A stretch of 64,000 nucleotides of DNA from an uncultured Planctomycetota bacterium (GTDB lineage: Bacteria; Planctomycetota; Planctomycetia; Gemmatales; Gemmataceae), in assembly GCA_963849325.1 (NCBI GenBank), contig CAWKHF010000002.1, positions 416,001 to 480,000 on the forward strand. The letters run 5' to 3'. Each line of letters opens with the position of its first letter. The stretch's first letter is position 1. A program made the translations under genes and the position numbers. The notes under the pieces were generated by a model, which was not told the origin of the DNA, searched no databases, and saw only the letters and a list, made by a program, of their open reading frames with translations. Below are positions 11,629-64,000 of the stretch, one piece after another.

Positions 11629-13014
11629 TCAGAAAAAGTTCGAGTAGTCTTCCTCGACGCGCTTGTGCGAGAGGGAAGTGAAGAAATGGGCGTAGCAGAG
11701 CCAGGCAGCCAGGGCGTGCAGGTTGGCGAAGGGAGGCGGGACGTAGCGCGGCGGCACGAGCAACCCCTCGTCGGCGAGCAGCGCCAGCGTCTTGATGTCG
11801 TCGAGGTTCGTCTTGCCGCAGAACAGCAGCGGCACGCGCCGCGCCATGCCGTGCGTCACCGCCTGCCGCATGAAGTTGTACAGCAGGACGAAGCCCTTAC
11901 TGTAGCAAAGGTCTTTGGTGAAGGGACCGCAGCCCGCCGGCAGACTGCCGCGGAACAGACGCATCGTGTGCTGATAACTCTCGCGCGGATGGTAGCCTTC
12001 TTCGAGGAAGAAGCGATACACGTCGAGGAAATCGGCGCCCGACTCGGCCAGGGCGACGCCTTCGATGCGATGCGTCAAGCGGCGGACACGGGCGGGGTAC
12101 GAGGCGAACGACAGCACTTCGGTCAACACCGCCAGCCCTTCCTGCGTGGTCGTCGCGGACGGCGGACCTTTGCTGAGGAACGTGCAGATCGGTTGGCGTT
12201 GTCCGTTGAGCGTCGTGCCCAGGTGGACCCAGCCTTCATGGACTTCCAGCAAGCGGACCTCGCGCAGCGTGAATGAGGCGTCGTCGCGCAGCTTGATGTA
12301 GTCGCTGCCGGCCGCCGCGTCGGCGACGATGCCGTCGGACAGGCGCACGCGCACCGCCGACGGCATCTGGAAGAAGCCGGTGAGCCGTTCGGACAGCACG
12401 CACACCGCCTCGGCCGAGTCCAGGATCGGCTCGACCGGGGCGAGCGCCTTGTCGTGAGAGAGATTATCCAGCGTCCCAGCCAGCATCCGTCCGAGGTCGG
12501 CGAGGCTGGGGTCGCCGGCGTGGAAGCTATCGCGGGAGCTGCCGTACAGGCGCTCCGACAGCGCGGCGAAGGCGGGCGTACCGCGATGGACGAGCAGATC
12601 GAGGACTTGCCGATACTCCTCGCAGATGCGCGACATGATCTGGCCGGCGGCGTTGTATTTACCCAGCCGTTGCCGGATGTCGCGCTCGATGCCCAGGAAA
12701 TCTTGCCGTTTTTGCTCGGCGTCGAAGGGCAGGGGGCGCGAGAGGTAATAGTCTCGGCGAACCGGCGGCAGTTCGCGGCAGCCGGCGGCGAAGAAGGCGC
12801 GTTCGACGTCGTCGTCCCATTTGATGGCGTCGAGAATGCGGATGGGCCGCTGCGCCTCGACGAGACGGTCGCTCAGCGAGCGGATCAGCGCCTCATAAGT
12901 CGAGAGCGGACGGCCGGCTAAACCAGGCGGCTCGCCGTTGTCCTCCGCACAGATCGTCAAGGAGGGCGGGGCGCCCTCTCGTGTTCCGTTGGCCAGGTTG
13001 GGTTTGCCCATCAT
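11629..13014 (-). CDS. DUF1704 / QEGLA-motif metallopeptidase-like protein
   Basis: VHEGWVH, TQEGLA and FTKDLCY motifs. Confidence 0.9.
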   Translation of the reverse strand: MMGKPNLANGTREGAPPSLTICAEDNGEPPGLAGRPLSTYEALIRSLSDRLVEAQRPIRILDAIKWDDDVERAFFAAGCRELPPVRRDYYLSRPLPFDAEQKRQDFLGIERDIRQRLGKYNAAGQIMSRICEEYRQVLDLLVHRGTPAFAALSERLYGSSRDSFHAGDPSLADLGRMLAGTLDNLSHDKALAPVEPILDSAEAVCVLSERLTGFFQMPSAVRVRLSDGIVADAAAGSDYIKLRDDASFTLREVRLLEVHEGWVHLGTTLNGQRQPICTFLSKGPPSATTTQEGLAVLTEVLSFASYPARVRRLTHRIEGVALAESGADFLDVYRFFLEEGYHPRESYQHTMRLFRGSLPAGCGPFTKDLCYSKGFVLLYNFMRQAVTHGMARRVPLLFCGKTNLDDIKTLALLADEGLLVPPRYVPPPFANLHALAAWLCYAHFFTSLSHKRVEEDYSNFF

Positions 13015-13237
13015 CTCGCGTATCGACCGACGCACCGTCCGTTTCCTGCCACGAGGTGAGGCGCCTCCACTCACCTGGGCGCACGCGCACGGCCGTCCTC
13101 TTCGGGTTCCGTCCGCCATCCATCGCAAGCGTCCCTTCGCTCGCGTCCTGGAGTGTCCCTCGGCGAGCCGGGGCCACGTTGCCCCTTGTAGCCTGCCGAG
13201 TCGGATACGTCCAGAGCAGCCCTTGCCCAATTGTATC

Positions 13238-24871: not shown

Positions 24872-24977
24872 ACCGTCAAGACGCCAAGCAAAGACGGAGG
24901 ATCAAGTGTAGTACGAGGGGGATGAGAGATTCCGTAGCTCTCTTTCTTCTCTTGGCGTCCTTGGCGTCTTGGCGGTT
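24872..24977. repeat. Inverted pair of (CCAAGACG/CCAAGGACG)-type repeats overlapping the shc 3' end
   Basis: accgtcaagacgccaag near 24872 versus cttggcgtccttggcgtcttggcggt near 24951-24976. Confidence 0.6.
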
Positions 24978-26927
24978 CGATCATAGCGAGCCAGGGCCAT
25001 GAGCGGGAAGTACAGGCGGTAAAGGTGATATTTCAGGTAGAAGACCTTGGGGAAGCCGGTGCCGGTGAACGGTCTTCGCGCCAGTTGCCGTCCTCGTCCT
25101 GCGTGGTCAGTAGGTAATCGATGCCACCGCGGACCGCGTCGCTGTCGTGCCTCGCCGGCGGCCATCAGGGCGAGCAGCGCCCAGGCGGTCTGCGACGCCG
25201 TCGGCGTCCCCTGTGCCGGCCAGCGTGGGGTCGTCGTAGCTGCGGCAGGTTTCGCCCCAGCCGCCGCCGGCTGCTGCACTTGCTCGCAGCCAGGCCACGG
25301 CGCGGCGCACCATCGGGTCTTGCATGTCGAAGCCGATGCTGCGCAGGCCGCACAGCACCTGCCAGGTGCCGTAGATGTAATTGACGCCCCAGCGGCCGAT
25401 CCAGCAGCCGGACTCCTCCTGCGTTTTCCGCAGAAAGACGAGGGCGCGGCGCACCTGCGGATGATCGCATGCCGAAGCCGTAATGGCCCAGCGCTTCCAG
25501 GACGCGGGCGGTGATGTCGGGACAGCTCGGGTCGAGCATGGCGTTGTGGTCGGCGAACGGCACGTGCGTCAGGACTTCGCGGTTGATGTCGCGGTCGAAG
25601 GCCGCCCAGCCGCCGTCGCGGTTCTGCATGCCCAACAGCCAGCGCAGGCCGCGCTCGGCGGCCGGGCCGGCCGTCGGTCGTGTTCGCCTGCCCCGTCTTC
25701 GCCAGCGCCATCAGCACCATCGCCGTGTCGTCGGTGTCGGGGTAGAAGGCGTTGCGGTACTCGAAGAACCAGCCGCCCGGCTCCAGTGCCGGGTTGGTCA
25801 GGCTCCAGTCGCCCTGCTGACGCACTTCGCTTGGCAAGCAGCCAGCGGGCGGCCTGCTGGATGGCGGGGTGCTCGCGCGGACAGCCCAGCATCGGCCAGG
25901 GCGTTGAGGCTCAGGGCCGTGTCCCACACCGGCGAGAAGCACGGCTGCAAGCGCAGCGTGTCGTCTTCCTCGATCATCAGGTCTTCGAGCTGCTTCAGGG
26001 CCCAGCGCATCTCGGGAGCATCGTCGGGGACGCCCAGGCAGCGCAGGGCGACGACGGTGTAGATCATCGGCGGGAAGATGGCGCCGAGGCCGTCGCTGTC
26101 GTCGAGGTGCTCGCGCATCCAGGCGGCGGCTCGGCGGAGGGCGAGGCGACGAATCGGCCCCAGCCACGGCTCGACCTTCTTGTAGAGGCCGTCGACGCCG
26201 AGGAAGAAGTTGGTCCAGCTCAGCCAGCGCCGCGCGGGCTGCGCCGGCCAGAGCGAGCGTCTGCGGCGGCCGCAGGAACAGTTCGCGATGCCTTTTTCGG
26301 CGGGCAGTTGCCGCACCGGCTTGCACGCCGAGAAGATGCTGAGCGGCACGACGATGGTGCGCGTCCAGCTCGACATGGCGTAGAGGTTGACGTAGACCCA
26401 GCGCGGCAGCAGCACCATCTCCGGCGGCACCGAGGCGCAGTTGCCGTAGGGGAACTGGCCCAGCAGGGCGAGGTAGAACTTCGTGAAGCTGTTGCAGCCG
26501 GCGGCGCCGCCGAGGGCGCGGATGACCTGCGCGGGCCCGACGCATGTACGGCGCGTCGGGGTCGTGGCCGGTCAGCTTGAGGGCGAAGTAGGCCTTGACC
26601 GAGACGCTCAGGTCGGCCGGGCCGCCGGGGTAGTTGCTCCAGCCGCCCTCCGCCATCTGCTGCCGTAGGACGTAGCGGGCGGCCTTGCGGCAGACCTCCG
26701 CTGTCCTCGCGGCCGAGGAAGGCCATGAGCAGGACGTATTCGGATTCGAGGATGGTGTCGCCCTGCAGCTCGCCGACCCAGTGGCCGTCGTCCTGCTGCT
26801 GGTCCAGCAGGCAGCGGCGAGCGGCGTCGATGCCGCGACGCAGAGGAGAGGAGGGGGCGGAATCGTGGCGGCGTCCGGCATCCGGCCGTCGCGGCATCGG
26901 CCGCGTCTGCGACTGTGAGCCTTTCAC
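24902..26927 (-). CDS. shc: Squalene-hopene cyclase (multiple frameshifts)
   Basis: QQQDDGHWVGELQGD, YPDTDDTA (DXDD), QNRDGGWAAFD, WIGRWGVNYIYGTW, FTGTGFPKVFYLKYHLY. Confidence 0.95.
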
Positions 26928-27450: not shown

Positions 27451-27539
27451 GTCAGATTGGACGACCAGGACCGGGAAGGGTTTCGTCGTTTCCAAGTTGG
27501 AATTGGGGGACAATGCCAGGAGAACTTCTCCGCGTTCAT
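27451..27539 (-). pseudogene. Truncated PemK/MazF-family toxin fragment
   Basis: After a 1-nt shift reads M.RGEVLLALSPNSNLETTKPFPVLVVQSD, like the MazF start MKRGDVV..KxRPxLVVQ; ATGA overlap with the upstream antitoxin. Confidence 0.6.
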
Positions 27540-27766
27540 ACGTCATTGTAAACATCCATTTCCGGTCGATCCCAGTCCTCCGCAGCCGCTCCCCAGCGCG
27601 ACCGTAGTTCCGCAGTCTCCGCCTCGTCGATGCCGTGCGCCCGCAAGTCGATGCTTCCTTCGATGGGAAGGAACGTCACCACGACACGCGCCTCTTTCAC
27701 GTCCGGCGGCGTTTCCAACAGTTCGATTTTGCCGTGCCGATAAATGCCCTCAACCGCTTTCAGCAT
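27536..27766 (-). CDS. Antitoxin-like protein (DUF104/AF2212-like N-terminus)
   Basis: GGAGG SD; MLKAVEGIYRHGKIELLETP..VVVTFL..EDWDRPEMDVYN. Confidence 0.7.
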   Translation of the reverse strand: MLKAVEGIYRHGKIELLETPPDVKEARVVVTFLPIEGSIDLRAHGIDEAETAELRSRWGAAAEDWDRPEMDVYNDV

Positions 27767-28079
27767 GTACGTTTCCTCCAGCAAAGTTTGAGACCCCTTG
27801 TGCGGGATCGTTTGCGTTCTACTGATCGGTGCGCAAAGGACGCTGGGCTGGAATTGTGGACCTAAGATGCGCATTTCGCCGCGATGGCCGCCCTATTGTC
27901 CGGCTTGAGGCTGTTTCACGAGCCGCCGTGAGGAAGGCTTCGAGATACGAGGGCAAGGGAAGGCGCTAAGAACCTTTTTGCATAGCAAAAGTATTAAAAT
28001 GGTTCCTGATATCTTTTTTCCCCCAAATGCCGCGATCTCTGCCAGTCACAACCGCGATTGGTCATCGGACATGCATCGC

Positions 28080-31000
28080 TTACCCCTTCTTTCTCCCCTT
28101 CTTCGAGCCGATCTCGTTGCCGAAGAGGTCCGTGGGGATGGCGTTGCCGAACAGGTCTGCAGGCCGATCCTTCACCGACTTCTCTGGGGGCGACAGCGCT
28201 TCCGCCTTCTCCTCGTCGGTCAGCTTCTGGGATTCTGGAGCCGGTTTCATCGGCCGACCAAGCACCTGATAGGCCCGCGCCGTCGCCATCCGGCCACGCC
28301 GCGTCCGCACGATGAATTGCTCCCGCAGCAGGTACGGCTCGATCTCGTCGCTGAGGGTATCAACCGGCAGGCTCATGCTGGCCGCCAGGGATTCGACACC
28401 GACCGGCCCGCCGCCGTGTACGCCGACCAGTATTTCCAGATAACGGCGGTCCTGTTTATCCAGTCCATCGCGATCGACCTCGGCCATGTCCAGGGCGGCG
28501 CGGGCGATGTCGAAGGTGATGCGGCCATCGTCCTCGCTGGCGGCAAAGCTCCGCGCCCACCACAGCCGGGCGTTGGCGAGGCGCGGCGTGCCGCGACTGC
28601 GCCGCGCCAGCTCAAGGGCCGCATCGTCGGTGATCGAGGTTTGCAGCTTGCAGGCATTGATGCGCACGATCTCGGCCAACTCCTCAACGGTGTAATACTC
28701 AAGGTGCTCGTGCATCTTGAAGCGATCGCGCAGCGGTCCAGACATCATTCCGCTGCGGGTGGTCGCCCCGATCAGCGTGAACGGTTTCAGACGCAGGTTG
28801 ATTGTCCGCGCATTCATGCCTTCGCCGAGTACAATATCGAAGCGGAAATCCTTCATTGCTGGATAGATCAACTCCTCGACAAGACGCGGCATCCGGTGGA
28901 TTTCGTCGATGAACAGCACCGAGCCTTCCTCGACGTTGGTGAGAAAGGTCAACAGATCGGCCGGCTTAGTTAGCGCCGAGCCGCTGGTCATTTGGATCGA
29001 CGTGCCCAGTTCGTTGGCCAGTGCGTTAGCGAAGGTGGTCTTGCCCATTCCCGGCGGGCCGTCGAACAAGATGTGCGATAGCGGCTCCTTGAGTTTTTTA
29101 CAGGCGTTCAGGACGATGCTCAGGCGCTGGACGATCGCTTGTTGGCCGATGATTTCGCGCAGCCATCGCGGCCGCAGCGACGCATCGCGCCGCCGCGATT
29201 CCTCGTCGCCGCCAGATTGCACGATGGCTTGAGGTGCCGTGTAGGAGCCTCGCACGTCTTCCACCTGTTTGAGAGATTCAACCCAGGAAGGGATAGTGCC
29301 GATCGAGTACTTCCGAATTATCGACTGAGCTTCCTGTTTAAGAGATTCAACCACGGAAGGGATGGGGGCGGCAGGGGCCGGTAGCACTGCTGGGGCGGGG
29401 CTGGGAGCCGCAGCGGGGAACAAGCCCTTGACGGAGTTGGCCGGCACCCATTCCAACATGCCGTACTGCCAGACAAAATCGGTCGGTTTCAACTGTCCGG
29501 AAGCCGCCAGTTGCTTGAGTTGAGTGGCCGTGATGGGCGCGATGGCTTGCTGGCCGTTGAGCGTGTAATGCCATTCATTCGCCGCCTTGGCGGAGACGGG
29601 GGGAAGGACGGCCGAATCGCCGAGGCTCTTGCCGGAAGGACTTCTATAAGGGGTTGCTAGATAATGCCAAGGGGGCACGACGGCCGAATCGCCGAGAGTC
29701 TTGCCGGCGGGGGGGAACAATCCTTTGATGGCGCCAGCGGGTACCCATTCGACCATGCCTTCCTGCCAAACGAGGTCGGTCGGCTTCAGCTGCCCGGAGG
29801 CCGCCAATTGCTTGAGTTGGGTGGCGCTGATGGGCGAAGCGGCGGGTTGGCCGTGGATCGTATAATGCCATTCATTCCGCATCAGGTCGGGCAGTGCAAG
29901 GCCGGAGGGAATGGCCTGATCGACCTGGAGGCCGGGTGCTGCTTGTATTTCGCTAATCCGCCGTGCCAACTCAGCCGCGTCTGTCGGGCGTTTTTCCGCT
30001 CGTGATGCCAGGCAGGATGCCAGTAAAGCGAGAAAGTCTTCACTCACTCCGCGTGAACGTACTTCATCCTGCCAATCAGCCGGCAAAGACACACTATTCA
30101 TGTCGCCGGTGAGGAGTTGATACCAGATGACACCGAGGGCGTGGACATCGTCGCGCGGGTCTGGCGGCTCCCCGTCCTTTTGTTGCGGTGAGGCGTAAAA
30201 GGGCGTGTGGGCACCTCGCAACACCGTCGGAAGCAAGTTACAGCCCACACGACTACGTTTCGCCGCCGCCAGCGCCTGACCAGCTACGACACCGCCGATG
30301 CCGAAGTCAGCTACGCGGGGAGCGTACCCTCCCTTATCGGTTCGGTTCAGGAGGATGTTCGCTGGCTTGAGATCACGATGCACGATGGGCGGATTAAGCT
30401 TGTGTGCATACGCTACAATCTCCGCTAGTCTGTATACCAATTTTGTAGCTTTTTCGACCGTGCATGCTGAAGGCGAGCGGTGCCATTGGGCGATCACTTT
30501 AGTCAAATCACCCCCAGCCACGTACTCGTACTCCAGACAGGGCGTCTCGGCGTTGAGATAGGTGTGCAAGAGTTTCACGATGCCCAGATGTTTCCCTTCG
30601 CACATGACACGGCCCAGCAAGGCTGCCTCGTTGCGGAGCACTTTGGCCGCCGTCGCATCGGTGCAGAACTTGAGAGCTGCTACCGTGTGGGGAAGGTGGG
30701 GGTTGCATGCCATCCAGACTTCCCCGAAGCCACCTACGCCGAGCAGTTCCTGTAACTCCCAATCTCCGATACCGGGCGGACGGTCTCCGGGCCGAAACCG
30801 GGGCATCTTACTGGGAAGGAGGAGGAGTAGGTCTTCGGCGCGTTGCAAGGAAAGTTCAGAAGAGAGCGATCGTCCACTCGAATCTCCGCGGCAGCGCTGG
30901 GACTGACGGATGGCGTTCGGTACGAGAGCTACATAGTCCGCTACCGCTTGGCAGACAGTCTCCAGATGTCCAGCGCCTTCCACCTGCGCAGCCAATTTGG

Positions 31001-31217
31001 CGTAGCCCTTTGTTTCGGCGACCGACAGTCGGGCTACCGCTTGCAGCTCCGCTCGCAATTGATCTTCTGGCCGGCCTCTGTTCCACCACTTCCAAACGTC
31101 TTTCGCCATGTCTGGCAAGACATCGACAGCAAAATCCCCTAATACGCCGCCTCCGGCGATGTTCAAGGCGGCTCTGGCAATGAACCGCAAGAGGGCGGGC
31201 GGCGTGTGCATGGCCAT
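28080..31217 (-). CDS. Fusion protein: N-terminal helical domain, Ser/Thr kinase, 2x GYF_2 (DUF4339), RuvB Holliday-junction ATPase
   Basis: Single open 1045-aa frame. Kinase GVGGFGEVW, AALK, HRDLKPAN, ADFG. Two WHY..GQ..PI...LKQLAASGQLKPTD.VW..GM.EWVPA. RuvB LRP..IGQ, GPPGMGKT, FIDEIHR, GATTRSG, LRDRF, SRGTPRLAN, IEPYLL..RTRRGR. Confidence 0.93.
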   Translation of the reverse strand: MAMHTPPALLRFIARAALNIAGGGVLGDFAVDVLPDMAKDVWKWWNRGRPEDQLRAELQAVARLSVAETKGYAKLAAQVEGAGHLETVCQAVADYVALVPNAIRQSQRCRGDSSGRSLSSELSLQRAEDLLLLLPSKMPRFRPGDRPPGIGDWELQELLGVGGFGEVWMACNPHLPHTVAALKFCTDATAAKVLRNEAALLGRVMCEGKHLGIVKLLHTYLNAETPCLEYEYVAGGDLTKVIAQWHRSPSACTVEKATKLVYRLAEIVAYAHKLNPPIVHRDLKPANILLNRTDKGGYAPRVADFGIGGVVAGQALAAAKRSRVGCNLLPTVLRGAHTPFYASPQQKDGEPPDPRDDVHALGVIWYQLLTGDMNSVSLPADWQDEVRSRGVSEDFLALLASCLASRAEKRPTDAAELARRISEIQAAPGLQVDQAIPSGLALPDLMRNEWHYTIHGQPAASPISATQLKQLAASGQLKPTDLVWQEGMVEWVPAGAIKGLFPPAGKTLGDSAVVPPWHYLATPYRSPSGKSLGDSAVLPPVSAKAANEWHYTLNGQQAIAPITATQLKQLAASGQLKPTDFVWQYGMLEWVPANSVKGLFPAAAPSPAPAVLPAPAAPIPSVVESLKQEAQSIIRKYSIGTIPSWVESLKQVEDVRGSYTAPQAIVQSGGDEESRRRDASLRPRWLREIIGQQAIVQRLSIVLNACKKLKEPLSHILFDGPPGMGKTTFANALANELGTSIQMTSGSALTKPADLLTFLTNVEEGSVLFIDEIHRMPRLVEELIYPAMKDFRFDIVLGEGMNARTINLRLKPFTLIGATTRSGMMSGPLRDRFKMHEHLEYYTVEELAEIVRINACKLQTSITDDAALELARRSRGTPRLANARLWWARSFAASEDDGRITFDIARAALDMAEVDRDGLDKQDRRYLEILVGVHGGGPVGVESLAASMSLPVDTLSDEIEPYLLREQFIVRTRRGRMATARAYQVLGRPMKPAPESQKLTDEEKAEALSPPEKSVKDRPADLFGNAIPTDLFGNEIGSKKGRKKG

Positions 31218-31368: not shown

Positions 31369-32390
31369 TCAATCCTTGTTGGCGCCGCGGGTTGGTGAAT
31401 CGAGCCATCCCATCGTGCGAAACCACGCCACGGTCTCGGCGAGCGTCTCGGCCACCGGACGCGGCCGCAGTCCGAGTTCGGCGAGGCTGCGCCGCGCGTC
31501 GAAGTGCATGAGGCGGCGCGTCAGCTTGACTCCGGTGACGGTCGCGGCCGGCGCCCTATGGGTAATGACATCAGCGACGAATTCGCTGGCATACGCTGCC
31601 GCCAGGGCGACAGGGTAGGGCACGCGCCAGCGTGGCTCCGGCAGGCCGGTCAAGCGAGCGAGCATCTGAAACACGGTGAGGATCGACAGGTTTTCGTGTC
31701 CCAACAAATAGCGCCGGCCGGGGCGACCGCGCTCCATGGTGCGGACCATGCCCTCGGCCACATCGCGGACGTTGATGAGGTTGAGGTTGGCGTCGAGGTA
31801 TTCGCGGCGTTTGCCCTGGCAGAAATCGAGCATCATCTGCGTCGGCGGCGTCCGGCCGAAGTCGCCGGGACCGACCGGCAACGTCGGGTTGACCACGACC
31901 ACCGGAGCGCCGGCGCGGCCCAGGCGCAAGGCGTGCCGTTCGGCCAGGTATTTCGACCGACAGTAAGGTCCGATGACATCCTCGTAAGTGATGGGCTGCT
32001 CTTCGGTGATGGCGGCGGACTGCCGGGAGCGCGTCAGTATGCTCTCGGTGCTGGCGTGCAGCACTCGCTGGACTCCGGAAGCCAGCGCCGCCTCGATCAC
32101 ATTGACCGTCCCGACGTAATTCACCTGCCGGAATAGTCCGCGTTGCTGCACCCACAAGTGCGGGTTGCCGGCCAGGTGATACACCTCCCGACAGTCGCGC
32201 ACCGCGCCCGGACGGCTGATTTGTCGCGGATGTCCCCTGGCACCACTTCGATGCGGTCACAAGGAAGGTGGGCGATGGGCGCCTGCGGCAGATCGAGGAC
32301 GCGCACCTTCTCGCCGCGCTCGACCAGGAGACGCACCAGATGACTACCGATGAAGCCGGCCCCGCCGGTGACAAGAATGGTGGACTTCAT
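31369..32390 (-). CDS. hpnA: Hopanoid-associated NAD-dependent epimerase/dehydratase (HpnA-like), frameshifted
   Basis: LVTGGAGFIG, YHLAG, YCRSKYLAE, VVVVNPTLPVGPGD..TPP, GRPGRRYLLG. Confidence 0.75.
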
Positions 32391-35162: not shown

Positions 35163-36710
35163 TCAAGGATTGGCCTCTGCTTCGCCGCGCGGAAAGATCT
35201 CCCCAGCGAGGCGAGCGGCCTCCCTCGCCGTGGCGAGGAGCTGGTGAAAGACTTTACGGACCTTGCTCTCATCGATCTCGGCGCGGAGGCAGCGCAGCAG
35301 GGCGACCCCGTGGGCCTCGGCCAGCTGCCCGGCCACGGCGGGCAACAGCCACTCCTCGATACCATATACCTTCCCGGCCATCGTACAGATGGGAACCACT
35401 CCCGTCGCGTAGGCGCCGACTTGCTCCCACACCGCCGCCAGCGCTTGCTGGATGTTCTCTTCTTTGCGGCGAGACGGCTGCCGCCAGTCGTAGGGGGGCG
35501 ACCACTCCAGGGCCGGCGAAAGCAGATCAATGTGTGTCACCACGACGAGCAGAGGCGGTTGCTTCAACTCCGGGTGGGAGGCGAACCATTCTCGCAGCTC
35601 GTGCAGCACTTGCACGTCGGCTTGCCGGGCCGGGTTGCGCGCGTGCAGTACCAACAGCATCAAGTCCGACTGCCGGGCGCTGTCGCAGGTCACGGCGAGT
35701 TGATCGGCCTTGGCCCCCTCGTGTCCGTAACCGACCGTATCGAGAAGGACCAAATCGGCAGGGACGCCCTGGGGGTGCAAGTGATACCGCGTCACTCCCG
35801 CAGTCGCCGGCAGCACGTCCGTCAGAGCCTGTTGCTCACCGAGCAAGGCGTTGATGAGGCTGGATTTCCCCGCCTTCACCTGCCCGAGTACCGTCACCGT
35901 TACCTGGCGGGCGGACGGCGCCGGTTGAGTTGTCGTAGGCTGTGCGGCGCTCGGGAGCAACTCGCGGAAGCGGTCGGCGCCGATTCGGAGCCGGCCGCTG
36001 TTCAGCTCCACCAGATACGTTCCGAGGCGATGGACGTAGGCGGTGTAAAACCACAGGATCAAGTTCTGTTGCAGCATTTGCCAGGGCTGCGACAGACCCA
36101 GCTTCGACGCGGTAAAACGCGCTCCCGTTTCCAGGGGCGAGAACAGGGCCGTGATCGCCCAGTACACGTTGCTTGCCGGCTGATACCAGTCGAGGGCCTT
36201 CTTGGCGCGGCGCCAGTCCTTGATGGTCAGCAGATGGCCGCCGGGTACGTAGCGATCCACCAACTCCGCGAGATCGTGCGCGGCCAACTCAATGACGGCC
36301 AGGATTTCCGGCACGGTCAAGTTGGAGATGGGATCGCTTGTCCCCGGATGATAGAAGACGGCCAACTCGGCAGCCATTTCCTCCGCCGTGGTCAGATAAT
36401 GGCCCAGATTGCTCATTTTCTCCGTCGGCAGGGAATTGGCCGCCTCCGCCCGCGCCTCGACCAAGCGCCAGGCTTGCTGGTCGCGCTCGGTCCAGTGGCG
36501 GGGGGCACTGAAATCGGGGGGATGCAGCAGCACGCGCTTGCGCTGCCAGTACCAGCCAAGGGTGTAGCCGAGTCCCACGCACAGGGCCAGAGGCCACCAG
36601 GCGAAGAATCCCCAGCGCAGCGTCCATAGATAGTAGGAACCGGCGCCTGCCAGGAACAGGAAAGGTACGACCGTTAGGCCAATTACCAGCAGGATACGCC
36701 AGCGGCTCAT
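35163..36710 (-). CDS. Membrane-anchored Era/MMR_HSR1-like GTPase
   Basis: Two N-terminal TM helices; G1 GQVKAGKSS, G3 DTVG, G4 THID. Confidence 0.85.
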   Translation of the reverse strand: MSRWRILLVIGLTVVPFLFLAGAGSYYLWTLRWGFFAWWPLALCVGLGYTLGWYWQRKRVLLHPPDFSAPRHWTERDQQAWRLVEARAEAANSLPTEKMSNLGHYLTTAEEMAAELAVFYHPGTSDPISNLTVPEILAVIELAAHDLAELVDRYVPGGHLLTIKDWRRAKKALDWYQPASNVYWAITALFSPLETGARFTASKLGLSQPWQMLQQNLILWFYTAYVHRLGTYLVELNSGRLRIGADRFRELLPSAAQPTTTQPAPSARQVTVTVLGQVKAGKSSLINALLGEQQALTDVLPATAGVTRYHLHPQGVPADLVLLDTVGYGHEGAKADQLAVTCDSARQSDLMLLVLHARNPARQADVQVLHELREWFASHPELKQPPLLVVVTHIDLLSPALEWSPPYDWRQPSRRKEENIQQALAAVWEQVGAYATGVVPICTMAGKVYGIEEWLLPAVAGQLAEAHGVALLRCLRAEIDESKVRKVFHQLLATAREAARLAGEIFPRGEAEANP

Positions 36711-36730
36711 GGGGCGAGCCTCCCTCGGTG

Positions 36731-37917
36731 TCAGGACTTGTTCGTCTTCCAGGCTTGCTCGGCGCGGGTGAGTTGGCCGCGGTAATAGCGACGCAACTCC
36801 TCCGGTTGCGGTACGTGGCCCTGGTGGACGGCCTGGTAGTAAAAACAGAACGCCTTGCCCAGCGCGAAGGTGGATGCACTGGCCAGGGCGCTGCTGGCCA
36901 TCGTACCCAGCACCGGCCCGACATAAGGGACGTACTTGAGCAGCAGCCGCGAACCCTGCCGCAACAACATGCCCAGGCCGAGCGTGCTGGCGATCTCCAG
37001 GAAACGCGGTGCGGTCAGAGGTTGGCCGTACAGCTGCGCCAGGTGATATACCATCCGCGACTGAATGCCGGACAGCAGGACCAGATCGACGATAGGCACC
37101 GGCATGGCGCCGGCGCTGCCGGCGAGGGTGCTGTAACCGACGATGTACGGCAGCGCCTGCCGGGCGTAGAAGTCTTGCAAGTCGCGGCTGGCCTCTCCCA
37201 GCGAGAGCAAGGTCTGGCGGTAGGCTGCGGGCAGTAATTCGAGCAGTGCATCGCGCAGCGGCGCTCCGCCGTAGTCGGGATCGTTAAAGCCTTCCTCGGC
37301 CGTCGTCAGGTCCACCGCGACGACGCGATCGATCAGACCCTCGAAACGCCGGCGCTGTTCCGCGAGGCTGCGCAACAGATCAGACGGCAGGGCAGGGGAG
37401 TCGGTCCTCGGTTCGGCGTTTGGCCCGAAAGGGTAGGGGAGGGGGTGCTGCTGTTGCGGATACGCTTCGTGCAGGCACGTCAGCACCAGCAGCACCGGCC
37501 GAGCGACCTTCGCCGCGCGGATGGTGCGCAGGTGCGTCAGGACGTTCGCCTGAGCATGATCCAACGCCTTGACGGTGACGATCAACACCTGCGCCTGGTC
37601 GTTGAACGCGCGAGATCCTCGGCCGGATCGTAGCCCGGCTCATCGAGTCCGCGCGTGTCGAGAAAGGTGAGCAGCGGCGCCTCCCGCAGCGGAAACTGGT
37701 ACTGACGCGAGAAGCGCGTGCAGGGTTGAAAACCCTTACCGATCTCGGCGGATTCGGCGCCGGTCAGCGATCGGATCAGCGACGTTTTGCCGCTTTGGGT
37801 CTTGCCCAGCAGCCAGAAGACCGGCACGGGCATCTGTTGCCGCAGTCGTTCGAGGTACTCCTGCAAGCGCGACTCCCGCGCCGAGGCCGAAAATAGGTGC
37901 TTGATGCGCTCGAACAT
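36731..37917 (-). CDS. GTPase with C-terminal DUF697/YcjF-like domain (frameshifted)
   Basis: G1 GKTQSGKTS, G3 DTRG; AGAMPVPIVDL..IQSRMVYHLAQLYG; KYVPYVG. Confidence 0.85.
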
Positions 37918-52025: not shown

Positions 52026-52957
52026 CTACCAGTATTCTTCGTAATGCAGGTTGCCTTTGATCTTTAAGCTCGGCTGGTCCGTCTCGAAGCCGCGTTTTTC
52101 CAGGATCTCGATGACGCCCGGCGGCTGCGGGAAGATGCGTTCGCCGGTTTCGCGATTTTTTTCGGGCACGCCGATCATCTTGGGATTGCCGCACAAAAAG
52201 ACGTGCGTCCGCTTCGGGTCGAGCGGTTCGCCAAGGCGTTCCTCCAGTTGTCCGCTCGTCAAGAGATCCTGAATGTAAACTTTATGGCCCTTGCTCTCGG
52301 CCTCGCGCGTGGTCAGCGACAGGTAGATGTAATTCGGATAGCGCCGCATCAGCTCGTCGTGAATGGAGTGATAACCGAGGTCTCGGCGATAACGCACGCA
52401 GCAGGCCGAGAGAATGCGGCCGCGATGCCCGCGTCGCAGCAACTCCCACAACATATAGTTGTGCGGCGCCTCGCCCGTGCCGGTGGCCAGGAAGACACGG
52501 CATCCTCGGGCCGTACCGGATCGAGGGTGAAGTTGCCGCTGATCTTCTCGCCCAGGAAGAGACGCTCGCCCTCGCGCAGCAGGAACAGGCGCGGCGTCAG
52601 GGCCGGAGGCAGGGTCTTTTCGGTCTCGCGCACCAGGACGATGTAAAACTCCAGCCAGTCGGCTTTGTCGCGGTCGAGGAGACGCCCCTCGTCGTCGAGC
52701 ACCGAGCAGCTGATGGAATAGGAACGGCGGGCCAGTTTCGTCAGGTCCGCTTCCATCAGATCCTCCTCCGCGCTGCCCGGAAAGCGCGGCTCCCAGTAGC
52801 CCAGCCCGAGCGCGGCGTACTGGCCCGGTTTGTGGAGATGAAGCGTGTAGTCGGGACGTACCCGCATGATGAGCAGGTCGCTGTGGATCTTGACCAACCG
52901 GGCCACGGTGGCGTTGTACTTCTGACGACGCAGGTCCGCGATCTGTTCGGGTGTCAT
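52026..52957 (-). CDS. fpr: Ferredoxin--NADP reductase (frameshifted)
   Basis: KPGQY, RRSYSI, LTPRL, LATGTGEAP, FLCGNPKMI, C-terminal EEYW. Confidence 0.9.
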
Positions 52958-53124
52958 GCTTCTCTCGATCCCACCGACGCAAACAAGCGGCCCCGGCACC
53001 CCCCGCCCCGCCGCAGTGCCGCTGGGAAATGGCGTCCGAGGTGGAGAGGGAATGGACCACTCCTCCAATGTATTATAGGGAACAGCGCCGAAAGCACTGA
53101 AGGGCTTTTCGGCCGGTGCATCGG

Positions 53125-53193
53125 TCTCACGTTTAGCCGCGACGCGCGGCGGAGCGCGATGCGCTCTGCCGCGCGTCGCGGCTAAACGTGAGA
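53125..53193. repeat. REP-like palindrome
   Basis: tctcacgtttagccgcgacgcgcggcggagcgc-gat-gcgctctgccgcgcgtcgcggctaaacgtgaga. Confidence 0.9.
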
Positions 53194-53250
53194 GAATGGT
53201 TGGACGAGTGCTTTCGAGACGCCGAGATAAACGGGCAGGCCGGTTCGCCC

Positions 53251-54129
53251 TCAACTTCGTTTCTTGACCGCTTCCTTGACGACGTGCCACACATGCCTTC
53301 ACGTCCGCCGAGGGATCTTCGGGATGGGCCTCATACTCGATACTGATCATCCCCTTGAATCGGACCTCCCGCAGCGCCTGGAGGACGCCGCTCACGTCGA
53401 GGACGCCCTTGCCGAAGATGACATCCTCGTGCTTCGCATTGTCGTGGTCCTTCAAGTGAATGCCGAAATTGCGTGTCGCCCATGAGGCGGATTTGCTCGG
53501 CCGGATCAAGCTTGTCGCCGAGCTGGGCGGCGCGAATGAGATGGCCGGTGTCCAGGCAAGTCCCGATGAGCGGATTATGGTCCTTGACCGCCTTGAGGAT
53601 GACTTGCGCCGAATACCAGCGATGCTCCTTCTTTCCTTGCGGCCCGTGCGGATGAATGCCGATGGCGATCTGGTATTCCTCACACAGCTTATCGAGGCTG
53701 TCGAAGCTGTCCGGGTCGGGATCGGCGCTGAACATCTTCACTCCCAGCGCCTTGCCGAACTCGAAGACCTTGCGGTTGGCGTCGGTATTCTTCGAGAAGT
53801 GCTGTACTCCCCAGGCCAACGGCGTGACCTGATATTCCCTGCACAGTTTCAACAGGGCCTCGATCTGCTTGGGAGAACTCCCCAGCAGGGGCGTGTTTCT
53901 GGAAGAACTCGACGTAGTGCAGGCCGAGATCCTGCATCCTCTTGAGGGCTTGCTCCGTATCGAACTCACGGAAGGTGTAGCTCTGGGCCCCGAACTTGAA
54001 ACCCCCGAAGGCGTCGTCCTTTTTCTCCTCGGCGTGGAGGAGATTCGGCGCGATGGCCAGGCCGAGAGCGGAGGCGCTCCCGGCCTGGAGGAAACGACGG
54101 CGATCCAATGTGTGACGGTCCCCGATCAT
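53251..54129 (-). CDS. Tat-exported sugar phosphate isomerase/epimerase (frameshifted)
   Basis: DRRRFLQ Tat motif, GAQSYTFR, GIHPHG, CLDTGH, IHLKD, ISIEYE. Confidence 0.88.

Positions 54130-60703: not shown

Positions 60704-64000
<3,297 letters not shown>

Follow-up and report, generated by a model that had tools for sequence, protein, structure and literature searches.

RuvB is a textbook stand-alone motor, and a gene in which it stands behind a signalling kinase raises the question of whether that gene is genuine and what its RuvB part might do there. Such a gene lies in the 64,000-nucleotide stretch analysed here (the window; positions 416,001 to 480,000 of contig CAWKHF010000002.1), which comes from an uncultured, soil-type planctomycete of the family Gemmataceae. 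Positions 28080-31217 of the window, on the minus strand, form one unbroken open reading frame (ORF) of 1045 codons plus stop, as the original prediction had described, and the protein comprises, in this order, a helical N-terminal domain (N-domain), a Hanks-type kinase, two GYF_2 domains and a full RuvB (RuvB_N, AAA_lid_4, RuvB_C). The kinase-GYF_2-RuvB architecture is real and extremely rare. We give a probability of about 0.5 to the reading that the gene is a genuine, lineage-restricted Gemmataceae chimera in which RuvB serves the kinase as a ring-forming or targeting module. The database copy of the protein, P0002 (1043 residues), starts at the second ATG, two codons later. The parts of the gene are as follows.

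28080..31217, minus strand: whole fused ORF; a second in-frame ATG at 31211 gives the 1043-residue form P0002
30888..31217, minus strand: N-terminal helical domain, residues 1-110, six to seven helices; family-specific, from an AlphaFold2 model
29976..30758, minus strand: Hanks-type Ser/Thr kinase, residues 154-414, with K183, E197, D282, N287 and D304; from Pfam, family alignment and fold match
29877..29942, minus strand: kinase-to-GYF junction, residues 426-447; the M446 ATG (29880-29882) overlaps an off-frame TGA (cTGATGc)
29706..29876, minus strand: GYF_2 domain 1, residues 448-504; from Pfam; DNA repeat D1
29580..29705, minus strand: spacer between the GYF_2 domains, with a duplicated GK(T/S)LGDSAV..PP unit; repeat D3; matches the segment that follows GYF_2 in P0371
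29409..29579, minus strand: GYF_2 domain 2, residues 547-603; from Pfam, second stretch
29229..29408, minus strand: Pro/Ala-rich linker with the IPSxVESLKQ motif twice; repeat D4; ends at T660 (ACG, 29238-29240)
28260..29228, minus strand: complete RuvB module with Walker A and B, sensor 1, R832 and sensor 2, and with K789 in place of a trans-acting Glu; from Pfam, NCBIfam and alignment
28083..28259, minus strand: C-terminal tail with two DLFGN repeats and KKGRKKG; repeat D2

Pfam recognized the kinase (Pkinase, PF00069) with 90.1 bits against a cutoff of 31.7, GYF_2 (PF14237) in two stretches with 93.9 bits against a gathering cutoff of 25.8, and RuvB as RuvB_N (residues 681-839, 209.5 bits), AAA_lid_4 (842-915) and RuvB_C (918-986). 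The protein also passed both NCBIfam equivalog models of RuvB, NF000868 (418.9 versus a cutoff of 282) and TIGR00635 (377.5 versus 299.05). The kinase carries GVGGFGEV at 160-167, K183, E197, HRDLKPAN at 280-287 and DFG at 304-306, so that the claim of a full set of catalytic motifs holds; the RuvB part carries Walker A at 720-728, Walker B at 769-774, GATTR at 817-821, the Arg finger R832 and sensor 2 at 874-879. The DNA coordinates first given for GYF_2 (about 29415-29880) and RuvB (about 28080-29190) were correct to within a few bases.

We asked whether a frame of this kind could have been made by sequencing or assembly, through an indel or a chimeric join that merged a kinase gene with a GYF_2-RuvB gene, or the DNA of two organisms. 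The contig is very rich in indels, as had been noted: uvrA falls into at least 7 frame pieces, and a cyclase, an epimerase and an AP-endonuclease-type gene are frame-split as well. At the kinase/GYF junction, TGATG combines an off-frame TGA with the ATG that encodes M446 in frame, and no stop interrupts the +1 frame upstream of it as far as about residue 392; in a contig like this, a single wrong base might in theory have fused two coupled genes here. The GC content at third codon positions (GC3) changes in steps at the module borders, being 0.62-0.63 in the N-domain and kinase, 0.73-0.77 in GYF_2, 0.58 in the linker and 0.79-0.82 in RuvB and the tail, and the full-length protein is a singleton cluster. 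In 12 unbroken comparison genes GC3 was 0.72-0.83, with the epimerase just upstream of the fusion at 0.82. Since this upstream epimerase and the RuvB part (0.79) both look native, a chimera would need two joins. A scan for promoters and terminators gave 2 promoter-like sites versus 1.1 expected and 1 terminator-like site versus 3.8 expected.

Related proteins bear directly on this question. We searched about 5.8 billion protein clusters (word-indexed) and 1.84 billion cluster representatives (full HMMER scan) and took the best 120-150 matches listed. Among these, in both collections, no protein other than the gene's own product and one relative, P0240, combined a kinase with RuvB, in line with the original prediction, which knew of no described fusion of this kind. 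With the whole protein as query against the clusters, the 120 best matches listed were its own protein, P0004 and 118 kinases without RuvB; with the GYF-plus-RuvB half, the matches listed were its own protein, P0004, P0122 and 117 stand-alone RuvB proteins of 339-353 residues. P0240 was the top match of the HMMER scan of the representatives (467 residues, 784.8 bits, 85% identical over four stretches) and, when the word-indexed collection was searched with the junction region for shorter proteins, again the sole further kinase-RuvB protein among the matches listed. No kinase-RuvB fusion was seen in 80 related genomes, nor in plasmid or phage records, where 0 of 258 matching plasmid records and 0 of 72 matching phage records covered at least 80% of the fused protein. 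The RuvB matches also included P0246 (476 residues) and P0258 (514 residues), in which the RuvB of other bacteria has an internal tandem duplication of its N-terminal ATPase half; these may be assembly duplications.

P0240 comes from another contig and crosses both junctions in a single frame, from a kinase (Pfam 7-236) through a 45-residue linker, one GYF_2 domain (297-347) and the linker VPCWVESLKQVEDVRDSHTARQ into RuvB_N (406-450). Its linkers differ in length from those of the window copy, each by an in-frame gap of 23 residues. At the kinase-to-GYF junction its linker is 23 residues longer and contains no Met; Arg-Arg stands in place of the Leu-Met of the window, at what would be the start of a separate GYF_2-RuvB gene. 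Identity to the window is 227/246 in the kinase, 45/57 in GYF_2 and 56/62 at the RuvB N-terminus; thus the domains are 79-92% conserved while the linkers vary freely. A further relative, P0004 (621 residues), consists of a different N-domain, two GYF_2 domains, a VESLKQVED linker and RuvB, without a kinase, and so crosses the GYF-RuvB junction independently; the VESLKQVED motif is common to the window, P0240 and P0004. The fused gene is thus probably no assembly artefact, as far as sequence comparison can tell, and we regard an origin by misassembly as highly unlikely.

How does the RuvB part compare with RuvB proper? It is 84-90% identical to the stand-alone, 345-residue RuvB of Gemmataceae and aligns end to end with the solved structures 9dx3 and 7pbl (315 bits). 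L681-R682, GPPGMGKTT, FIDEIH, GATTR and SRGTPR align with the counterparts that make up the cis nucleotide site of RuvB (N-terminal Leu-Arg, Walker A Lys and Thr, Walker B, sensors 1 and 2). The start codon, in contrast, is gone: stand-alone relatives begin with MARQAIVQSGG, whereas the window has TAPQAIVQSGG (ACG-GCA-CCT-CAA), with ACG in place of ATG, and P0240 has Thr (TARQ) at the same position; P0122 begins with MPRQ. The original prediction had called the RuvB complete; its domains, Walker A and B, Arg finger and sensor 2 are indeed present, but it is not fully canonical, for K789 occupies the position of Glu128 of Streptococcus thermophilus RuvB, which is Glu in 197/197 related stand-alone proteins. 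D790 and R832 are kept beside this change. According to the available text of PMC9477746 (Wald et al. 2022), Glu128 acts in trans, sensing cis-Arg21 before it engages the Arg finger, and mutation of Glu128 caused a growth defect.

K789 is one of several unusual changes. We compared 161 near-invariant columns (at least 97% conserved among the 197 stand-alone RuvB proteins). Stand-alone sequences depart from the conserved residue at a median of 0 of these columns and never at more than 7; the window copy does so at 11, E789K included, P0004 at 16 and P0122 at 9, and the 50-residue RuvB piece of P0240 already has 5 deviations. All 11 window deviations fall in the large ATPase domain. P757T lies in a helix that aligns with alpha3, and the presensor-1 hairpin is conserved apart from an Ile to Phe change; in the same text of PMC9477746, alpha3 and the presensor-1 hairpin form the binding site for RuvA domain III. 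P0004 has lost the Arg finger (His) and the Asp129 equivalent (Ala). The change of Glu128 to Lys, together with the loss of trans-acting residues in P0004, suggests that motor activity is no longer the property under selection.

In a RuvB phylogeny, one of the checks that the original prediction had named, the window and P0122 are sisters (IQ-TREE support 97/92) with end branches of 0.13 and 0.12 against a median of 0.018, and P0004 sits near them on a branch of 0.33. FastTree joined P0004 to this pair (support 94) and IQ-TREE did not. Relative-rate tests counted 22-32 changes unique to the window versus 3-12 for the relative (p<0.05 in 16/18), and the fused RuvB protein evolves about 3-5 times faster than its relatives. 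The pairwise ratio of nonsynonymous to synonymous divergence (dN/dS) between the window RuvB and L001-L006, six of the related loci, was 0.083-0.150, compared with 0.039-0.105 for stand-alone pairs at similar synonymous divergence (dS). A value of about 0.1 indicates a module under purifying selection, constrained but in a different way. The window and P0122 alone share an odd C-terminal tail, where canonical relatives end in QPGLFD. The LF-type ending of the RuvB tail bears a possible resemblance to clamp-binding motifs.

The genomic setting of ruvB in relatives was read from 80 related loci, which came from a scan with each species represented by one genome. In 80/80 of them ruvB is unfused, with a stop closing its frame 212 codons or fewer before Walker A; the Walker A of the fused gene begins at residue 720 of an open frame. 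The usual gene order is ispF-cysS-ruvC-ruvA-ruvB, with ruvA directly upstream of ruvB in 69/80 loci and ruvC as well in 65/80. Neither ruvA, ruvC, cysS nor ispF was found in the 64-kb window by tblastn with the proteins of a relative (best E=0.003, 29.6 bits), in line with the initial observation that ruvA and ruvC are missing there, and the window shares no flanking gene with any of the 80 loci. Six of these loci (L025, L033, L040, L062, L063, L038) are titled 'uncultured Alcaligenaceae' or 'Candidatus Kuenenia stuttgartiensis'; these titles look wrong, because their RuvB falls inside the Gemmataceae tree. All six have ruvC-ruvA upstream, and L038 and L040 also ispF-cysS.

Together these data bear on a simpler explanation, namely that the gene encodes the only housekeeping RuvB of the organism, carrying a long N-terminal extension, performing normal branch migration with RuvA and regulated in cis by the kinase. 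The equivalog cutoffs passed, the retained Walker motifs, sensors and Arg finger, the identity of up to 90% to stand-alone Gemmataceae RuvB, a dS to relatives of the size seen between species, and the 7 of 77 related loci with at least 1 kb of upstream sequence in which ruvB lies away from ruvA all speak for it. The RuvAB structures in the available text of PMC9477746 were made with S. thermophilus RuvB lacking its first 15 residues, so that the extreme N-terminus is dispensable for assembly. On the other hand, 11 deviations at near-invariant columns exceed the maximum of any stand-alone RuvB, E789K hits the very trans-acting residue whose mutation reportedly impaired growth, the long branch is shared with P0122, and P0004 and P0240 carry changes that an only RuvB should not tolerate. 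We therefore judge this explanation improbable.

The N-domain and kinase have a different source. They are 81% identical to, and colinear with, P0003 over 41% of the query, after which P0003 continues into a beta-helix and TPR. At least 1101 relatives at E<=0.001 were found among the 8000 candidates scored, and in 118/120 matches listed the region behind the kinase is FGE-sulfatase, TPR, WD40, beta-helix or Sel1; this C-terminal slot is the part of the family that varies, and presumably it binds partners or ligands. In an alignment of 53 family sequences, 43-78% identical to the module in the window, K183, E197, D282, N287 and D304 are invariant. An AlphaFold2 model of residues 1-445, built with 53 family members, has a predicted local distance difference test (pLDDT) score of 86.3 and a predicted template-modelling (TM) score of 0.84, and places the helical N-domain against a PknB-like kinase. 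By Foldseek, the modelled kinase resembles PknB, PknA and PknI in fold (E about 1e-12, TM to target 0.67-0.80). Modelled alone, the N-domain reaches a pLDDT of 86.8, which bears out its proposed helical nature. It matched no Pfam family and no usable Atlas look-alike, and assignment to a death-like or other known fold was rejected (Foldseek against the PDB: 0 matches at E<=0.001; best E 0.6, TM 0.36).

The GYF_2 domains can also be traced. Among the 120 matches listed are many Gemmataceae GYF_2+DUF4234 proteins of about 256 residues, with whose N-terminal GYF_2 they share 72-86% identity. Compared with one such protein, P0371, domain 1 is identical at 47/55 and domain 2 at 48/55 positions, the latter also at 45/57 with the one GYF_2 that P0240 has. 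In P0371, GYF_2 is followed by a spacer that the window copy has in duplicate, between its two GYF_2 units. Internal duplications in the window copy, both recent, comprise one GYF_2 unit and one 23-residue linker piece. A GYF_2 gene lying upstream of ruvB in relatives was considered as a source and rejected: the matches that hinted at it began at query residue 108-109 (L013, L023), and tblastn with GYF plus linker returned nothing at E<=1e-3 in the 80 loci. A regular-expression scan of the sequence upstream of ruvB likewise found nothing, and no related locus had GYF_2 near ruvB. The linker itself (window 29264-29370, minus strand) contains SLKQVEDV, which resembles SFKSVEEV at the C-terminus of RuvA in relatives. 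Shuffle tests lent this resemblance little weight, since the observed score was reached in 50 to 2583 of 5000 shuffles (in the case of the window, 398-581 of 5000); that the linker may be a relic of the 3' end of ruvA, carried along when ruvB was copied, is kept as no more than a lead.

From these comparisons, the origin of the gene as a mosaic, to which three Gemmataceae families contributed a kinase paralogue, a copied GYF_2 domain and a ruvB outside its usual locus, is in our view largely established, and the mosaic is evidently young and restricted to a narrow Gemmataceae lineage. A copy of ruvB now sits away from the ispF-cysS-ruvC-ruvA-ruvB locus, without its own ATG, and its N-terminus is fused to one GYF_2 domain or two, copied from a conserved gene of the GYF_2+DUF4234 type. 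In the lineage of the window, GYF_2-RuvB became the C-terminal module of an N-domain-kinase protein, at a place where hundreds of paralogues carry other domains. The three-family mosaic, the fast-evolving, startless ruvB copy and the charge reversal at the trans site had all been missed by the original prediction.

A young mosaic may, of course, have no settled function. The chimera could be a by-product of duplication and shuffling in Gemmataceae that is heading for decay, the window copy being intact by chance. Just 2-3 instances exist among the matches listed, and the available text of PMC8567305 and PMC11032199 calls paralogization and domain shuffling common in Gemmataceae. The frame of P0240 slips after GPPGM, and the 18 residues at its end correspond exactly to the window DNA of that place when this is translated in the +1 frame; we thus take P0240 for an orthologue that shares the unusual FANALANELG stretch of the window and is broken at Walker A. 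The inactivating changes in P0004, the 3-5-fold acceleration of amino-acid change and the recent duplications in the window copy would also fit a gene on its way out. Against this, a frame of 3.1 kb has stayed intact in a contig where uvrA has at least 6 breaks, the RuvB part has a dN/dS of about 0.1, the kinase retains every catalytic residue, and the domains are conserved between the window and P0240 where the linkers are not. Decay of a functionless by-product is possible, and we give it a real if minor chance.

We prefer the reading in which RuvB works as a module of the kinase. The original prediction had proposed a captured sensor or decoy; a captured targeting or assembly module is a fair inference, because the C-terminal slot of this kinase family is variable, whereas the decoy part is without backing. 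Because the nucleotide-binding and fold residues are kept while interface and trans positions (E789K, P757T) have drifted, the RuvB part is most likely an ATP-dependent ring-forming or RuvA/DNA-binding targeting module and not a free branch-migration motor. It could form rings alone or mixed rings with housekeeping RuvB. Ring assembly would set several kinase domains side by side and allow trans-autophosphorylation, and the clustered kinase might act on recombination intermediates or send signals from them. Docking of proline-rich peptides would fall to the GYF_2 domains.

Several points weigh against this reading. Activation of the kinase by clustering is deduced from architecture, and the genomic context ties the gene to no process. 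The fused ruvB is not proven to be a paralogue, the search for a canonical ruvCAB having covered the 64-kb window. The indel-rich contig and the stop/start overlap at M446 leave room for the merging error considered above, and both relatives show signs of decay, P0240 with its frame broken at Walker A and P0004 with the Arg finger changed to His and the Asp129 equivalent to Ala. The RuvB tree alone does not join P0004 to the window and P0122; an approximately unbiased test (p=0.404) merely fails to reject that clade. The dS between the window and its relatives (0.56-0.88) is no larger than among the relatives themselves. Finally, separation of ruvB from ruvA is uncommon but not unknown, since among the 11 related loci without ruvA upstream only 3 have less than 300 bases of upstream sequence, 7 having at least 1.8 kb and one about 1.06 kb.

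A more specific version of the same idea can be put forward as a long shot. The fusion would be a recombination checkpoint device, in which RuvB with Lys at the Glu128 position co-assembles in RuvB rings on RuvA-bound Holliday junctions or reversed forks, brakes the sequential ATPase cycle and delivers a clustered, activated Hanks kinase that phosphorylates recombination or cell-cycle proteins. If true, this would be a bacterial analogue of junction-triggered damage signalling.

The original prediction had also suggested abortive defence, that is, an anti-phage system in which RuvB would be a decoy for, or a sensor of, phage proteins or junction DNA, with the kinase as effector. The best PADLOC matches of the fused protein are indeed defence-associated kinases (mad6, 131.8 bits; PD-T4-6, 118 bits), paired GYF domains occur in planctomycete GTPase-centred conflict systems (GAP1-N2; available text of PMC7159879), and the GC3 of the kinase module looks foreign. 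These PADLOC matches are, however, confined to the generic kinase domain, and the curated models failed (MAD6 74.9 versus 460; PglW 52.1 versus 990). The kinase family has more than 1000 members and resembles ordinary signalling paralogues. The neighbours are metabolic (a hopanoid cyclase, an epimerase and oxidoreductases), the flanks showed no sign of defence genes, integrases, transposases or tRNA, and no methyltransferase/BREX/MADS set was found near the gene (Pfam scan of 77 window ORFs; PADLOC on the fused protein only). With the plasmid and phage records likewise devoid of a relative, the suggestion fared poorly; we consider a defence role very improbable, and the present evidence opens no new class of defence system.

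Set beside known systems, the fusion joins two things already known, a RuvB duplicate and a Hanks kinase whose C-terminal module can be exchanged, and is not a new category. It shares with canonical RuvB the three domains, the end-to-end alignment, Walker A and B, sensors 1 and 2 and the Arg finger; it differs in lying behind about 660 residues, with no start of its own (ACG) and not beside ruvA/ruvC, and in its faster protein evolution (3-5 times), Lys at Glu128 and a tail with two DLFGN repeats. With PknB-type Hanks kinases it has the fold and all catalytic residues in common, but it carries a novel helical N-domain and lacks a transmembrane or PASTA sensor. Dimerisation activates PknB, whereas any oligomerisation of the fusion would come from the AAA+ ring. 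The defence kinases (MADS Mad6, PD-T4-6, BREX PglW) resemble it in their Hanks kinase domain, its best PADLOC matches, while the fusion scores below their curated full-length models, has no partner genes in view and lies outside a defence island. Its GYF_2 units are 85-87% identical to that of P0371 and share the spacer that follows, yet, in contrast to the GYF_2+DUF4234 proteins of Gemmataceae, the fusion has no DUF4234 and carries these units between a kinase and an AAA+ motor.

Also close are the expanded Gemmataceae Ser/Thr kinases with variable C-termini (Mahajan 2020b, cited in PMC8567305; PMC11032199), to which the N-domain and kinase are 50-81% identical and whose layout, a conserved kinase followed by an exchangeable module, the fusion shares; its own module, however, is a DNA-recombination enzyme plus GYF_2 and not a repeat- or lectin-type domain. 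In the available text, the same two papers report 98-140 Ser/Thr kinases per Gemmataceae genome and 307 kinase architectures across the sampled Planctomycetota and outgroup species, and describe paralogization and domain shuffling, replication-repair enzymes included, as typical of Gemmataceae. The main text of PMC11032199, in the part available, mentions RuvB, GYF and AAA 0 times. Neither a kinase-RuvB fusion nor a RuvB paralogue of bacteria was the subject of any paper among the literature matches listed.

Other features of the window deserve brief mention. The uvrA gene (60800-63620, plus strand) has its frame pieces, at least 7 of them, spread over about 2.8 kb; with an indel every 470 bases or so, breaks are far denser there than in the fused gene; its NF001503 profile segments are 38-214, 243-391, 344-413, 466-535, 534-608, 662-804 and 801-931. 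Squalene-hopene cyclase (24902-26927), the NAD-dependent epimerase (31369-32390) and an AP_endonuc_2/xylose-isomerase-like gene (52349-53969), all on the minus strand, are likewise frame-split, each into two frames. An AT-rich gap separates the fusion from a small ORF immediately downstream (27536-27874, minus strand), which has a lower GC3 (0.66) and no Pfam match. Its start, MLKAVEGIYRHGKIELLE, bears a possible resemblance to small antitoxin-like proteins. The gene at 11629-13230 (minus strand) gives a strong match (409 bits) to MATCAP (PF08014), a family named after the microtubule-associated tyrosine carboxypeptidase, here in a bacterium. At 35163-37588 (minus strand) a GTPase gene (MMR_HSR1/Dynamin_N) adjoins a DUF697 gene, and the two are possibly a paired GTPase system.

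The fusion offers a dated example of gene birth, with a lost start codon, nameable donors for all three parts and an evolution that is accelerated yet constrained, and with relatives that show inactivating changes, a broken frame in P0240 and lost catalytic residues in P0004. It places RuvB behind a signalling kinase, and would mean that core recombination machinery has been duplicated and reused as a module in a lineage prone to shuffling. If functional, the gene would provide a handle on the control of a Hanks kinase by an AAA+ ring, and on how planctomycetes may couple recombination intermediates to phospho-signalling.

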